Source: an uncultured Verrucomicrobiae bacterium
GTDB taxonomy: Bacteria; Verrucomicrobiota; Verrucomicrobiia; Palsa-1439
Direction of reading: 5' to 3'
DNA: 64,000 nt
Assembly: GCA_963812605.1 (NCBI GenBank)
Contig: CAWEWF010000014.1
Coordinates: 352,001-416,000 of the forward strand
Part shown: in pieces, positions 35,692 to 55,419 of the stretch
How the letters are laid out: every line of letters starts with the position of its first letter
How positions within the stretch are numbered: the stretch's first letter is position 1
Program-made: the position numbers and the translations under genes
Notes under the pieces: generated by a model
Databases searched by the model: none
Seen by the model: the letters and a program-made list of their open reading frames with translations, nothing else
Told to the model about the DNA's origin: nothing

Positions 35692-36041
35692 CCCCTCACC
35701 TTCATCCTCTCCCCCGGAGGGGAGAGGAAAACGCTGCGACGACGGCAAGCGGGACGCTCGCCCTACCCGGAAGGGAGAGGAAAAGGCTAACCCGCTTTCA
35801 TAGTCCCCTCGTCCTTGGAGAAAAGGCCATGGTGAGGGGCCGCGGTCAGCGCCGGCGGCTACAGTGTCCTCCTCTCCCCTTGGGGGAGAGGGTTGGGTGA
35901 GGGGTGTCGTCGTTCCTCAGCGCAATCGTAAAGCCACAACTATTAGCTAACACTAAGAATCATCCCACAAATGGTGGGACAGGCCTCCGTGCCTGTCAAA
36001 ATCCGTCCACACAGGCCCCGAAAGCTTTCGGGGTGCCACTA
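35692..36041. repeat. Mixed REP cluster between convergent genes
   Basis: CCCCTCACC..CCTCTCCC..GGGGAGAGG units in both orientations; GGCAAGCGGGACGCTCGCCCTAC; CCGCGGTCAGCGCCGGCGGCTACA; GTGGGACAGGCCTCCGTGCCTGTC; CCCCGAAAGCTTTCGGGG (36016-36033). Confidence 0.8.
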
Positions 36042-36046
36042 AAGGT

Positions 36047-37036
36047 TTAGAAGACCACTTCTACGGGTACCAGCACAATTTTGCCGTAGGCGCCGGGCTG
36101 CATGAGTAATTCATGGGCGCGGGGCGCGTCTTTGAGCGGAAGCTCCTGGTTGATGACCGGCTTCAAGGAGCCGTTGGCCAGACCGGCCACCAAGGCGGCG
36201 TGGATGCTGGCGAGCTCGGTTTCGGAAGCGTTGGGTATCATCATGCCGAGGATCACCGCGTCCCGTTGCATGGTGGCGCGCGGATTGAACTCAAGCGCGC
36301 CGCGGTTGCCGATGATGACGATGCGACCATGGGGCGCGAGGACGGTGAGGTCCTTGACGAGATTGACGTTCGCCATCATTTCTAAAATCACTTCCGGACC
36401 GCGACCATCGGTGAGGGCTGTCAGCTGCGCCAGATAATCCGGAGCATGATGGTCAAGGACCTGGGAAGCGCCCTGTTGTTTCACCACATCTTGCCCGCGT
36501 CCACTGCTTGCCGTGCCAATGACACGCAACCCGCGCGCGACAGCCAATTGTACCGCCGCGATACCGACGCCGCCACTGGCGCCGTGAATAAAGACGGTCT
36601 CGCCGGGAATAGCCCGAGCTTTTTGGAAAAGCGCGCGATAGGCCGTGCTGTAAGGCGTCCCAATGGCCGCGCCCTGGGTGAAGGTGGCGTTTTCGGACAA
36701 GGAATGGACCTGCGATGTGTTACAGACCGCGAGCTGGGCGTACGCGCCTTCACGAATGCCGCTGGCGGTCCCAAAGACGTACACCCGGTCGCCGGCCTTC
36801 CATTCTTTTACGCCATCCCCGACCGCTTCCACGACGCCCGCGCCATCCGAGCCGGGTGTGAAAGGTAGTGTGGGATTGATCGCGTAAGTGCCGGCGCGAA
36901 CGTAGGCATCGAGAGGATTCACGCCGACGGCGTGCAGACGAACCAAGACGTGCCCGGGACCCGGCTTCGGGTCGGGCACTTCCTCCAGCTTCATGACCTC
37001 GGGCCCGCCAACCTGGTGAACGCGGATCGCCTGCAT
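36047..37036 (-). CDS. NADPH:quinone oxidoreductase (zeta-crystallin/MDR)
   Basis: GGPEV, GVNPLD, PGSDGAG, HGASGGVG, GKIVL. Confidence 0.92.
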   Translation of the reverse strand: MQAIRVHQVGGPEVMKLEEVPDPKPGPGHVLVRLHAVGVNPLDAYVRAGTYAINPTLPFTPGSDGAGVVEAVGDGVKEWKAGDRVYVFGTASGIREGAYAQLAVCNTSQVHSLSENATFTQGAAIGTPYSTAYRALFQKARAIPGETVFIHGASGGVGIAAVQLAVARGLRVIGTASSGRGQDVVKQQGASQVLDHHAPDYLAQLTALTDGRGPEVILEMMANVNLVKDLTVLAPHGRIVIIGNRGALEFNPRATMQRDAVILGMMIPNASETELASIHAALVAGLANGSLKPVINQELPLKDAPRAHELLMQPGAYGKIVLVPVEVVF

Positions 37037-53476: not shown

Positions 53477-54121
53477 ATGCAATGGATTCACCAATTCGCC
53501 GATCTGTTCCTGCATCTGGACAAGCATCTGAATGACGCGATGCAGACGCATGGGACGGCCTGGACCTACACGATTTTGTTCCTCATCATTTTTTGTGAGA
53601 CGGGACTGGTAGTGACGCCGTTCTTGCCGGGCGATTCGCTCCTGTTTGCCGCGGGAGCGCTGGCGGCGGCGGCAGGCAGCCCGTTAAGCGTGGCGTGGCT
53701 GTGTGGATTGCTTTGCGCGGCTGCCATTGGGGGAAACACAGTGAATTACTCGGTCGGCCGGCTTTTTGGTGACAAGCTGGCGGCGAAGTTCCCGCGAATC
53801 GTGAAGAAGGAGTACCTCGACAAGACGCACGCCTTCTACGAAAAATATGGCGGCGAGACGATCATTATCACGCGGTTCGTGCCGATTGTGCGAACGTTCG
53901 CGCCGTTCGTGGCGGGCGTGGGGCACATGACGTACCTGAGGTTCAGCGCCTATAATTTTGTGGGGGGAGTCTTGTGGGTGGGGTTGCTGCTGTTTGGCGG
54001 TTACTGGTTCGGGCAATTGGAATTTGTGAAGGCGCACTTTGGCATTGTGGAAGTGGCGATCATTTTTATCTCGATCCTGCCGATGGTGATTGAGTACTTG
54101 CGTCACCGCCAGAAAGTGTGA
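53477..54121 (+). CDS. dedA: DedA family membrane protein
   Basis: FCETGLVVTPFLPGDSLLF, FYEKYG, RFVPIVRTFAPFVAG. Confidence 0.93.
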   Translation: MQWIHQFADLFLHLDKHLNDAMQTHGTAWTYTILFLIIFCETGLVVTPFLPGDSLLFAAGALAAAAGSPLSVAWLCGLLCAAAIGGNTVNYSVGRLFGDKLAAKFPRIVKKEYLDKTHAFYEKYGGETIIITRFVPIVRTFAPFVAGVGHMTYLRFSAYNFVGGVLWVGLLLFGGYWFGQLEFVKAHFGIVEVAIIFISILPMVIEYLRHRQKV

Positions 54122-54144
54122 TTAAGTAACGAGTCACCCACAGT

Positions 54145-54222
54145 CGGGACGTAGCGCAGTTTGGCTAGCGCGCTTGGTTCGGGACCAAGAGGTCGCGGGT
54201 TCAAATCCCGCCGTCCCGACCA
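54145..54222 (+). tRNA. tRNA-Pro(CGG)
   Basis: Acceptor CGGGACG/CGTCCCG, anticodon arm CTTGG-TTCGGGA-CCAAG, T loop TTCAAAT, encoded CCA. Confidence 0.95.
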
Positions 54223-54240
54223 TCTTCTCAAGATGGTCGA

Positions 54241-54510
54241 ATGCAGGATACCGCCGTATATGTGTATGTACTCTGTAGCGTAAATGACGACTGGTACTAC
54301 GTCGGCTGTTCGACCGACCCGCAACGCAGGTTCATCGAGCACAATTCCGGAAAGAGCAAATCCACGCGTCATCATCGGCCCTATCAGTTGGCCTACACGG
54401 AGCAATTTCCGAATTTGTCGGCTGCACGCAAGCGAGAGCAAGAGATCAAACGGAAGAAGAGCCGTCGGTATATTGACTGGCTGATTGCGGGGCGAATCGG
54501 AGCGGTGTGA
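54241..54510 (+). CDS. Small stand-alone GIY-YIG nuclease
   Basis: YVYVL, YYVG, RR..EHN.G.SKST...RP, A..RE..IK. Confidence 0.92.
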   Translation: MQDTAVYVYVLCSVNDDWYYVGCSTDPQRRFIEHNSGKSKSTRHHRPYQLAYTEQFPNLSAARKREQEIKRKKSRRYIDWLIAGRIGAV

Positions 54511-54515
54511 AGTTC

Positions 54516-54591
54516 GCGCGCCCCGAAAGCTTTCGGGGAGGTCGTCCCGACGGATGTCGGGACCGTCCCGACCATCTTCCCAAGATGGTCG
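54516..54591 (+). repeat. tRNA-Pro 3'-half copy with both arms replaced by palindromes
   Basis: GCGCG-[CCCCGAAAGCTTTCGGGG]-AGGTCG-[TCCCGACGGATGTCGGGA]-CCGTCCCGACCATCTTCCCAAGATGGTCG; last 29 nt are 28/29 identical to 54211-54239. Confidence 0.88.
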
Positions 54592-55419
54592 CTAGTGCGG
54601 GAGCCAAACGGGCTTGCCCTGGAATTTGAACCCTTTGTGTTCAAGTGCCTTGATCAATTTGCCAAGCCAGTGCAGCAACATGTCGAACCGCCGGAACAAG
54701 GCGTCTTCGGATTTGCGCTCGCTGTCGGCGCCACCGGAAAGGAGCGAGGTCGATCCGGTCTGCTGGACATGAATCCCGCGCGAGCGGCGTGAAAGTTCCG
54801 TTTTCCAGCGCTCCAGCGCCACCAGTCGCGCTTCGAGGGTGTAATCAACCGGCTTGATTTTTTTCAGCACTTCCTTGTCCGCCGTGGTCAACTGCCCGTG
54901 CTTGACGAACGTATCGACGATCACCGGACACAGGCGTTCCACCGCTTCGAGATGCTCGAACGCAGGCGGCACGGCGGCGGCCGGAGCTTCGGGAAGGGCT
55001 GCCGGCGGCGCGGACGGTGCGGCCATCTTGACCGGTTCAGGGGCGGGGCCAAACGATTTGATCAGGCCGGTGCTCGCACGATGTCCACCGACATGCAACA
55101 CCTTGACGGCGCCATGCTCGGCCTTCAATTCCAGGTCGATTTCCTCCGGCGTGGCGATGGTCAGCGTGAGTGTTTGGGCCGATGGATCGATGGTCGAGCG
55201 CAGCGATTTCGCCCGGAACAACTCTTGCAGGCCTTCGACGTTATGGGCATTCTGGAAGCCGATGATGTCGAGGTGGGTCATGGCGTCGACCACGAGCAAC
55301 ACGTCATCGCCGGGCGGTGTGAGGTGCACGTTGAGGGTATTGTGGATGGCCAGCGAAAGCTGGTCAAGATTCGGATGCTTCTGCCCGCCGCTGCCGAACA
55401 TTCCGCCGAATAGTGCCAT
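54592..55419 (-). CDS. Hypothetical protein
   Basis: 275 aa, SD GGAG, two regions joined by a Pro/Ala linker. Confidence 0.75.
   Translation of the reverse strand: MALFGGMFGSGGQKHPNLDQLSLAIHNTLNVHLTPPGDDVLLVVDAMTHLDIIGFQNAHNVEGLQELFRAKSLRSTIDPSAQTLTLTIATPEEIDLELKAEHGAVKVLHVGGHRASTGLIKSFGPAPEPVKMAAPSAPPAALPEAPAAAVPPAFEHLEAVERLCPVIVDTFVKHGQLTTADKEVLKKIKPVDYTLEARLVALERWKTELSRRSRGIHVQQTGSTSLLSGGADSERKSEDALFRRFDMLLHWLGKLIKALEHKGFKFQGKPVWLPH

Follow-up and report, generated by a model that had tools for sequence, protein, structure and literature searches.

The 64,000-nucleotide window analysed here (C14:352001-416000 of G000, the genome of an uncultured Verrucomicrobiae bacterium with 4.17 Mb in 15 contigs and ~58% G+C) carries, behind its gene for tRNA-Pro(CGG), an insertion composed of a nuclease gene of the GIY-YIG family, a partial copy of the tRNA with two of its arms exchanged for hairpins (a hairpin-patched copy), and a second tRNA trailer (Table 1). 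On balance, and with modest confidence, we take this insertion to be a small resident cassette of a widespread and apparently selfish family, in which a minimal GIY-YIG nuclease gene is lodged in a tRNA transcription unit. The family looks like an undescribed kind of selfish DNA, and the full-text literature, with subscription journals and supplementary files outside its scope, yielded no description of GIY-YIG genes accompanied by hairpin-patched tRNA copies.

An insertion behind tRNA-Pro(CGG)

The tRNA-Pro(CGG) locus was compared across 14 same-genus genomes, throughout which the sequence of the tRNA is kept. In three of them (G009, G001 and G008) the tRNA and its trailer abut the stop codon of the same downstream gene, and these empty sites therefore identify the nuclease gene, the copy and the second trailer as an insertion. 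The native trailer hairpin predates the cassette, since the empty sites of G009 and G001 also have a hairpin of this kind behind the tRNA. Filled sites were found in G012 (84% protein identity), G017 (73%) and G007, where the gene is broken, so that presence and absence are polymorphic in the manner of homing elements, with G000, G012, G017 and G007 filled and G009, G001 and G008 empty. The host tRNA-Pro(CGG) is left intact by the cassette. In G006 an N-terminally truncated nuclease gene lies ~6 kb from the tRNA owing to another insert, which separates it from a degenerate patched copy (L035); G005 and G013 keep tRNA-derived remnants only, and seven other genomes have unrelated inserts behind this tRNA. 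The locus is an insertion hot spot, with the same unrelated element behind the tRNA in G014, G010 and G015 (L037, L039 and L044).

An earlier, sequence-only reading of the window had described the tRNA, the nuclease and the copy, and all of its strings and coordinates proved correct on re-reading. Its statement that only the anticodon and T arms had been swapped was borne out by an automatic screen for perfect stems of at least 6 bp whose two 7-nt flanks match the partner tRNA, with at most one mismatch, at a distance of 8-24 nt on the tRNA; by design, this screen detects only hairpins within tRNA-derived flanks and is silent on other positions. Both window hairpins were recovered, each standing for exactly one 17-nt arm, CTTGGTTCGGGACCAAG and GCGGGTTCAAATCCCGC. 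The identity of 28/29 reported for the shared 3′ end corresponds to 27/28 (54212-54239 against 54564-54591) plus the closing C. With both loops replaced, the copy is not called as a tRNA by ARAGORN and has no Rfam tRNA match up to E 10. The idea that it is a full-length, diverged tRNA overlapping the end of the open reading frame (ORF) was rejected, the similarity of its 5′ third being not significant (373 of 2000 shuffles score equally). Likewise, hairpin 2 was considered as a permuted acceptor stem of tRNA-Pro, as CGTCCCGAC and GTCGGGA do match the tRNA ends, and this origin was rejected because GTCCCGA...TCGGGAC also replaces the T arm in copies of tRNA-Thr, which has a different acceptor stem.

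As regards read support for the copy, a point raised by that reading, a 187-nt Logan contig of sequencing run X1, possibly the source sample, matches 54443-54629 with 0 differences, and the same copy is therefore given by a second assembler. Among the sequencing runs the maximum share of sampled words was 0.21, and X21, X22 and the RNA run X2 cover the tRNA alone, at reduced identity.

In the orthologous copies of G012, G017 and G007, TCCCGA(C)-loop-(G)TCGGGA replaces the anticodon arm, whereas G012 and G007 have an unaltered T arm and that of G017 carries a 28-nt insert. The TCCCGA(C) stem is constant while the loops vary (ATGC, TGCATG and ATCT in the orthologues, GGAT in G000). In G000 this stem is at the T-arm position, and a different palindrome occupies the anticodon position. 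A second hairpin type, GGCGTT-N8-AACGCC, occurs beside tRNA-Pro(CGG), joined directly to the T loop at its 3′ half, AATCCCGCCGTCCCGACCA (L036 in G013, L005 in G007 and L003 in G017). It reads CCGTT...AACGG in G007, a compensatory change, lies within the T loop of the patched copy in G017, and persists in G013 despite the loss of the nuclease gene.

The 89-aa (amino-acid) protein matches the Pfam GIY-YIG domain (PF01541) with E 4.6e-15 and 56.1 bits, against a cut-off of 22.6 (55.6 bits in the whole-genome family search), and has no match in NCBIfam. The domain spans residues 7-75 and is the only one present, so that the protein consists of the catalytic domain without any joined DNA-binding domain of the SegB kind. 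The 14 cassette nucleases that were aligned, paralogues and orthologues taken together, all share residues Y9, Y20, G22, R30, H34 and E66; in this family of enzymes the tyrosines of the GIY and YIG motifs, an arginine, a histidine and a glutamate play catalytic roles. Between the G000 and G012 orthologues the ratio of nonsynonymous to synonymous substitution (dN/dS) is 0.10, with a dS of 0.87 over 85 codons, and the nuclease is, judging from this substitution pattern, kept by purifying selection. Decayed copies are also present (truncated behind tRNA-Val in G000, broken in G007 and truncated in G006), as expected for selfish genes. The duplicated tRNA end and trailer are 27/28 identical inside G000 despite near-saturated silent change, although the trailer differs between species, which fits ongoing conversion of one copy by the other, or selection acting on the pair; within G017 and within G007, the trailer resembles its duplicate less closely.

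In the window, the ORF starts two bases past the trailer hairpin, and the patched copy begins five bases past its stop codon. The stop codon of a convergent 275-aa ORF without family match follows directly after the copy, at 54592, and the other neighbour is a gene with a VTT/DedA domain. No integrase lies within ~1 kb of the cassette, in agreement with the sequence-only reading, and the insert codes only for the 89-aa ORF.

Table 1. Features of the tRNA-Pro(CGG) cassette, in positions of the window
Feature	Position	Strand	Basis
tRNA-Pro(CGG), working host gene of the cassette	54145-54222	+	ARAGORN; Rfam RF00005, 69.4 bits
Native trailer hairpin GACCATCTT-CTC-AAGATGGTC(G), tRNA 3′ end included	54218-54239	+	Read from sequence
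352-bp insertion: nuclease gene, hairpin-patched tRNA copy and second trailer	54240-54591	+	Empty-site comparison
Stand-alone minimal GIY-YIG nuclease gene, 89 aa	54241-54510	+	Pfam PF01541
GCGCGC, D-stem 3′ strand with position 26, retained; left edge of the copy	54516-54521	+	Left homology of 7 nt
Hairpin 1, CCCCGAAAGCTTTCGGGG, 18 nt, replacing the anticodon arm	54521-54538	+	Read from sequence; hairpin screen
AGGTC, retained variable loop	54539-54543	+	Read from sequence
Hairpin 2, GTCCCGAC-GGAT-GTCGGGAC, 20 nt, replacing the T arm	54544-54563	+	Read from sequence; hairpin screen
CGTCCCGACCA, first part of the duplicated acceptor 3′ strand/CCA/trailer block	54564-54574	+	Read from sequence
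Second trailer, TCTTCCCAAGATGGTCG	54575-54591	+	Read from sequence
Duplicated acceptor 3′ strand, CCA and trailer hairpin	54564-54591	+	27/28 identical to 54212-54239

Recurrence at tRNA genes and the hairpins that go with it

The claim that nuclease, palindromes and tRNA genes form a recurrent unit is upheld both within G000 and among its relatives. G000 has five small GIY-YIG genes (tblastn), each of which closely follows a tRNA or a fragment of one on the 3′ side: tRNA-Pro(CGG), tRNA-Val(GAC), where the gene is truncated, tRNA-Ser(TGA), a 3′ fragment resembling tRNA-Ser, and a copy of the tRNA-Pro(TGG) kind with TCCCGAGC-N8-GCTCGGGA as its anticodon arm. Contig C6 has four such Pro(TGG)-derived patched copies, in a second cassette at tRNA-Pro(TGG) (C6:99140-99720 and C6:166888-167054). 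At C6:99679-99720 there is also a 5′ fragment of tRNA-Pro(TGG) that breaks off in the anticodon loop, with the intact gene 67 kb away (C6:166888), which suggests a ~67-kb island integrated at the anticodon loop of this tRNA.

The family was found in 27 of 41 verrucomicrobial relatives. Among these, 81 loci were screened, two of them without a match to the four queries, and 82 GIY-YIG hits were examined for neighbouring tRNAs. A co-oriented tRNA called by ARAGORN lies at most 250 nt away at 59 of the 82 hits (27 genomes), and all called neighbours are co-oriented, bar one doubtful 'tRNA-???' on the opposite strand beside two hits of L082. Seven of the 23 remaining hits have a same-strand fragment from T loop to CCA, compared with 90 of 2000 random windows as background, and most of the rest belong to a separate clade, whose proteins have 105-120 aa and no tRNA nearby. 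More than ten tRNA species are adjoined by the nuclease relatives, including Pro-CGG/TGG/GGG, Met, Thr-CGT, Gly-CCC, Ser-CGA/GGA/TGA/GCT, Ala-CGC/GGC, Val-GAC and Gln, with the gene either before or after the tRNA. An even sample of the phylum contained the family in 57 of 121 genomes, with 16 of the 29 best loci adjacent to a tRNA and several of the others beginning less than 300 nt from a contig end. A search of named genomes with a single protein gave six loci, four of them from other phyla, and three of these four (two in Patescibacteria, one in a member of the Crocinitomicaceae, Bacteroidota) are tRNA-adjacent; at the Crocinitomicaceae locus a copy of tRNA-Phe is broken up by hairpins, one of which starts CTCCGAAAA.

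Some of these loci depart from the simple layout. At L108 (G092:C26:22081-25305) three GIY-YIG genes stand in tandem, ~364 nt apart, after one tRNA-Lys(TTT). Gene and tRNA stand 100-180 nt apart in a clade whose partners are Ser-GGA/TGA, Val-GAC and Ala-GGC (Val_C14, Ser_C10 and C14_83k in G000; L014, L027 and L071), and the spacers contain conserved modules, such as a hairpin with the CCA end of the tRNA (for instance GCCAGTCTTCGCTGGC) and units like CGCCGTAGCG-N-AGGCGG, which are not patched arms. Elsewhere in G000, ~18 tRNA genes are packed into 6.6 kb (C14:750058-756692), including an 89-nt call of 'tRNA-Ile(tat)', in an array that resembles a phage- or island-borne tRNA cluster.

The exchange of arms for hairpins, which had been noticed at the window locus, recurs: the screen returned 27 hairpins in 19 loci, 23 of them in place of an anticodon arm and four in place of a T arm, with Met, Pro-CGG, Pro-TGG and Thr as partner tRNAs. 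The best placement for every hairpin removes the 17-nt arm or its inner 15 nt, with a longer alternative placement in a few rows because the flanks repeat. Inspection by eye added D-arm replacements and T-loop junctions. Downstream of the gene, a copy generally retains only 6-13 nt on the 5′ side of the hairpin; on the other side it continues past the tRNA 3′ end into the trailer.

The stem core of these hairpins is YCCGA...TCGGR (TCCCGAC, TCCCGAG, CCCCGAC, CCCCGAA and CTCCGAA), and the same hairpin may occupy different arms, as CCCCGAAAGCWTTCGGGG does at the Pro anticodon position in G000, the Met anticodon position in G012 and the Thr T-arm position in G015. Another nuclease clade, with Ala-CGC, Ala-GGC and Ser-CGA partners, has GGGCTTG followed by TSCGCC-N3-GGCGSA, joined to the T loop. 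In that clade the hairpin, shared across three partner tRNAs, follows the nuclease and not the tRNA. The sequence-only reading had asked whether nuclease clades and palindromes vary together, and hairpin type indeed tracks nuclease clade, even across different partners. The motif that it proposed, CCCGA-N6-TCGGG, is present in both window hairpins and has proved to be only a special case of the wider core, which the other clade does not use. On a tree of 72 proteins, the distribution of partner labels requires 26 changes, compared with 49.7 in shuffles, a figure inflated by kinship.

In the window the gene follows the tRNA. Where the gene of a Thr cassette lies upstream, the order behind the native promoter is a patched 5′ copy, the ORF, the real tRNA and a second copy with both arms patched, and the start ATG is supplied by the T loop of the patched 5′ copy (TTCGATG). 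An upstream ORF runs into the real tRNA in L058, L009, L017 and L060 (Thr), L006 and L008 (Gly), and L011, L029 and L007 (Ser), and in 10 gene-upstream loci the stop codon lies inside the real tRNA, either as TAG at positions 8-10 or 13-15 or as TGA at 20-22. At several loci of the downstream type the stop codon is the TAG of retained GGTAGAGC or GCTAGCGC. Such overlaps suggest that the nuclease would be co-transcribed with the tRNA and, for the upstream type, that the mRNA would lose its stop codon on processing by RNase P.

Hairpin 1 of the window has a wider distribution. CCCGA-N6-TCGGG occurs 33 times in G000, compared with a median of 9 for 160 arms of equal G+C, and the exact 18-mer has 14 copies in G000, 30 in G021, 8 in G022 and 0 in many relatives, with a reversed control at 0 everywhere. 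The 18 loose matches to its core in G000 are heterogeneous, and ~10 of them lie within a REP-like composite repeat of ~90 nt. Three solo sites were compared with five relatives, with two more (L140 and L141) left out: the first is an orthologous old terminator with a drifting tip, the second a 24-nt presence/absence, or plain indel, at an unstructured 5′ leader, and the third lies in coding sequence. Hairpin 1 is therefore not specific to the cassette and needs no pre-existing hairpin, and its candidacy as an element-specific palindrome was rejected. The composite repeat, GGTGGGACAGGCCTCTGTGCCTGTCAAAA-N8-10-CACAGGCCCCGAAAGCTTTCGGGGTGCCACCAAAGGTTTATGAGACCACTT, is REP- or MITE-like, is present in at least 10 copies (window ~35950-36080, that is C14:388017, C6:294258, C6:458756, C8:5671, C8:135466, C9:3448, C12:641 and others), and makes CAGGC-N6-GCCTG the commonest palindrome of its class (86 copies).

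How the cassette may persist, and other readings

If the insertion is a selfish cassette, its palindromes would be the nuclease's own recognition hairpins, as the NTS/SRM repeats are for the Ssn nucleases discussed below, bound in single-stranded DNA and nicked a few nucleotides on the 5′ side. Nicks beside the hairpins may promote recombination of the tRNA-derived flanks with a tRNA gene, which would copy the cassette to the tRNA gene, or keep it there, in a homing-like manner, and through which the duplicated 3′ end would stay similar to the real tRNA. The replacement of the arms would avoid a second, competing tRNA, and may also split the direct repeat into stretches too short for recombination that deletes the cassette. 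Expression of the nuclease probably rides on the tRNA promoter.

Several results weigh against this account. The divergence of the nuclease and that of flanking genes among relatives are of similar size, and vertical descent with losses therefore explains the patchy presence equally well. The match between nuclease clade and partner tRNA is confounded by kinship, and the precise replacement of whole arms is not accounted for by a cassette alone. Hairpin 1, as a generic dispersed palindrome, need not belong to the nuclease. Both palindromes at the window gene (18 and 20 nt) lie on its 3′ side, with only the tRNA and the native trailer hairpin on its 5′ side, where the Ssn layout would call for hairpin inverted repeats of 20-50 nt on either side; in the G012 and G017 orthologues a hairpin does flank the gene on both sides. 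Among solved structures, the closest relatives are the UPF0213 proteins 1zg2 and 1ywl (E 6e-9). Finally, the published search motif for Ssn repeats, HGTCWYN(0-2)YYVSBRHN(0-5)WNVSBRGN(0-2)RNCYNB, has 0 matches in 54100-54650, one in the 81 cassette loci, and 31 in the genome compared with 38-45 in local shuffles; an identity of the hairpins with the published repeats was thus rejected.

A different reading gives the patched copy a function as RNA, namely that the nuclease mRNA would end in a tRNA-like fold, which directs processing by RNase P or RNase Z, or stabilises the message. Any stable hairpin in the arms would keep such a fold and remove decoding, in an mRNA co-transcribed with the tRNA. 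The minimum-free-energy fold of 54494-54577 is indeed a four-way, cloverleaf-like junction, the swaps preserve structure by putting a hairpin for an arm and keeping the linkers, the orthologous copies have an intact T arm, acceptor 3′ strand and CCA, and ORFs are physically joined to tRNA sequence, with the stop codon within the real tRNA in the 10 gene-upstream loci. However, the fold is only weakly better than that of shuffles (z -2.3, with 7 of 200 as good), the copy finds no tRNA match in Rfam, and most downstream copies lack the acceptor 5′ strand, just as the 5′ third of the window copy is not tRNA-like. The T arm is the main determinant for RNase P and RNase Z, and at the window locus it is itself replaced. 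Moreover, the palindromic symmetry of hairpin 1 as DNA is perfect over all 18 nt and extends through its 'loop', a feature for which a hairpin in RNA would have no need. A role as RNA is thus unlikely in our judgement.

We also regard as unlikely that the nuclease is a domesticated host factor, which would cut hairpin-bearing single-stranded DNA, such as that entering by transformation or conjugation, and control recombination at tRNA loci, which are hot spots of integration. Ssn of Neisseria, which modulates transformation, is a precedent (Chenal et al. 2025, PMC11893778), and the purifying selection on the protein, its long residence at one locus in several species and the several different elements inserted behind tRNA-Pro(CGG) in relatives would all be in keeping with such a function. 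Against it stand the frequency of truncated or broken copies, the patchy presence both among the relatives, even inside the genus, and in the phylum sample, and the multiple paralogues per genome at different tRNAs.

Bolder than the cassette reading, and of small probability, is the proposal of a new class of mobile element that works through the single-stranded, cloverleaf-folded DNA of tRNA genes. The enzyme would recognise the palindrome as a junction arm and nick at a fixed distance, and host repair would then transfer a copy of both gene and palindrome to the corresponding arm position in a duplicate of the tRNA gene, so that the swap would be the footprint of transfer and not a later adaptation. 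In that event, tRNA genes would be both the address and the scaffold of the element.

The mechanism put forward by the sequence-only reading, in which the nuclease cuts stem-loops extruded by tRNA genes, as Slx1 does with branched DNA, and repair writes in the palindrome, appears improbable. It would explain why 27 of 27 hairpins stand in the place of an arm (partly a consequence of the design of the screen), why D, anticodon and T arms are all hit, and why one hairpin type occurs in different arms of different tRNAs; weak PDB matches of the protein also include Slx1 (E 0.24 and 0.8). That reading had itself named plain insertion at an unstructured site as an outcome that would speak against palindromes replacing pre-existing hairpins, and one of the three solo copies is precisely that, the others being an old terminator and coding sequence. 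The real tRNA beside the nuclease retains all of its arms in every locus, and we know of no templating mechanism for a swap from arm to palindrome. Of that reading, the recurrence, the arm swaps, the link with nuclease clade and the insertion are supported, and the overwriting of pre-existing hairpins is not.

An ordinary scar of an integrase-borne island, with the tRNA 3′ repeat as attachment (att) site and the nuclease gene as leftover cargo, is very improbable: the direct repeat of tRNA 3′ end and trailer that brackets the insert, the larger inserts at tRNA-Pro(CGG) in G014, G010, G015 and G006 and the distant 5′ fragment of tRNA-Pro(TGG) could be so read, but the insert has just 352 bp without an integrase, the empty-site comparison contradicts it, gene and patched copy recur at many tRNAs, drift of an att scar does not yield swaps of arms for palindromes, and the nuclease is under purifying selection.

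Should the selfish-cassette reading hold, a compact, so far undescribed nuclease-plus-hairpin parasite of ~350 bp would inhabit tRNA genes in several bacterial phyla, and would account for many 'partial tRNA' calls, odd miscalled tRNAs and contig breaks beside tRNA genes. The hairpin-guided single-strand nucleases of the Ssn type would gain a second, tRNA-lodged branch, and the many natural pairs of enzyme and hairpin would be of interest for single-stranded DNA tools. The exact replacement of arms by hairpins would then be a sharp clue to the way in which an enzyme of 90 residues that lacks a DNA-binding domain locates its site, and the overlap of ORF and tRNA would point to an unusual tie between the expression of a selfish gene and tRNA processing.

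Comparison with known systems

Small nuclease genes accompanied by subterminal or dispersed DNA hairpins, which are recognised as single strands, are characteristic of IS200/IS605 and REP/RAYT elements. These use HUH/Y1 transposases, whose covalent intermediates make the rejoining of DNA possible. A GIY-YIG hydrolase cannot rejoin DNA, and therefore any mobility of the cassette must use host recombination.

In the case of free-standing GIY-YIG enzymes, SegB of phage T4 is reportedly longer than the cassette nuclease, with more than 200 amino acids and a DNA-binding part. It is a homing endonuclease encoded in a tRNA gene cluster, and its gene, together with the flanks, is preferentially inherited via recombination after cleavage (PMC2330249). 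As in the cassette, the gene lies next to or between tRNA genes and not inside an intron. Unlike the chromosomal cassette, SegB is a phage enzyme that cuts the double-stranded DNA of the gene-less allele, and the accessible text of that source describes no hairpin-patched tRNA copies. On the other hand, the stand-alone bacterial 'Slx1-like'/UPF0213 proteins surveyed by Dunin-Horkawicz et al. (2006, PMC1564403) resemble the cassette nuclease in having a minimal domain without extensions, and two of them (1zg2 and 1ywl) are its best sequence match among solved structures. The survey's accessible text gives no function, hairpins or tRNA neighbourhood for UPF0213, its three mentions of 'tRNA' being a methyltransferase fusion and references. 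A study of prokaryotic tRNA gene fragments mentions neither hairpins nor nucleases in its accessible text (PMC9897764).

The closest described system is the Ssn family (SsnA of Neisseria meningitidis, CDD cd10448), single-domain GIY-YIG proteins of ~94 aa that act as site-specific single-stranded DNA nucleases. Ssn binds its hairpin repeat, NTS/SRM, only in single-stranded DNA and cuts a few nucleotides upstream; the sequence of the stem is essential and the identity of the loop dispensable, and the genes are typically flanked by repeats (PMC11893778). The IS200/IS605 and REP/RAYT systems are cited in the discussion of the same paper.

The cassette shares with Ssn a single-domain protein of ~90 aa (89 here) without a DNA-binding domain, GC-rich hairpin repeats of 18-30 nt that accompany the gene and may also be dispersed in the genome, a conserved stem with a free loop, and a layout like that of a mobile element, as the Ssn authors noted for theirs. 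G000 also contains a 113-aa GIY-YIG gene of a separate, non-tRNA clade (C6:329335-329550, minus strand), with a 36-nt direct repeat on both sides that includes the hairpin CGAAGAA-N9-TTCTTCG, in the arrangement of repeat, gene and repeat described for classical Ssn. The likeness of this clade to Ssn is presumed in part from what we take to be typical cd10448 sequences. A further stand-alone GIY-YIG gene lies at C1:579552-579767. Unlike those of Ssn, the cassette hairpins sit in partial tRNA copies, where they replace tRNA arms, and the cassette genes lie inside tRNA transcription units, a setting for which the main text of the Ssn paper, with 0 occurrences of 'tRNA', has no counterpart (PMC11893778). 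On the best reading, the cassette would be a resident, probably selfish nuclease unit of an Ssn-like kind that is at home in tRNA genes, with lineage-specific hairpins in its inactivated copy of the tRNA.

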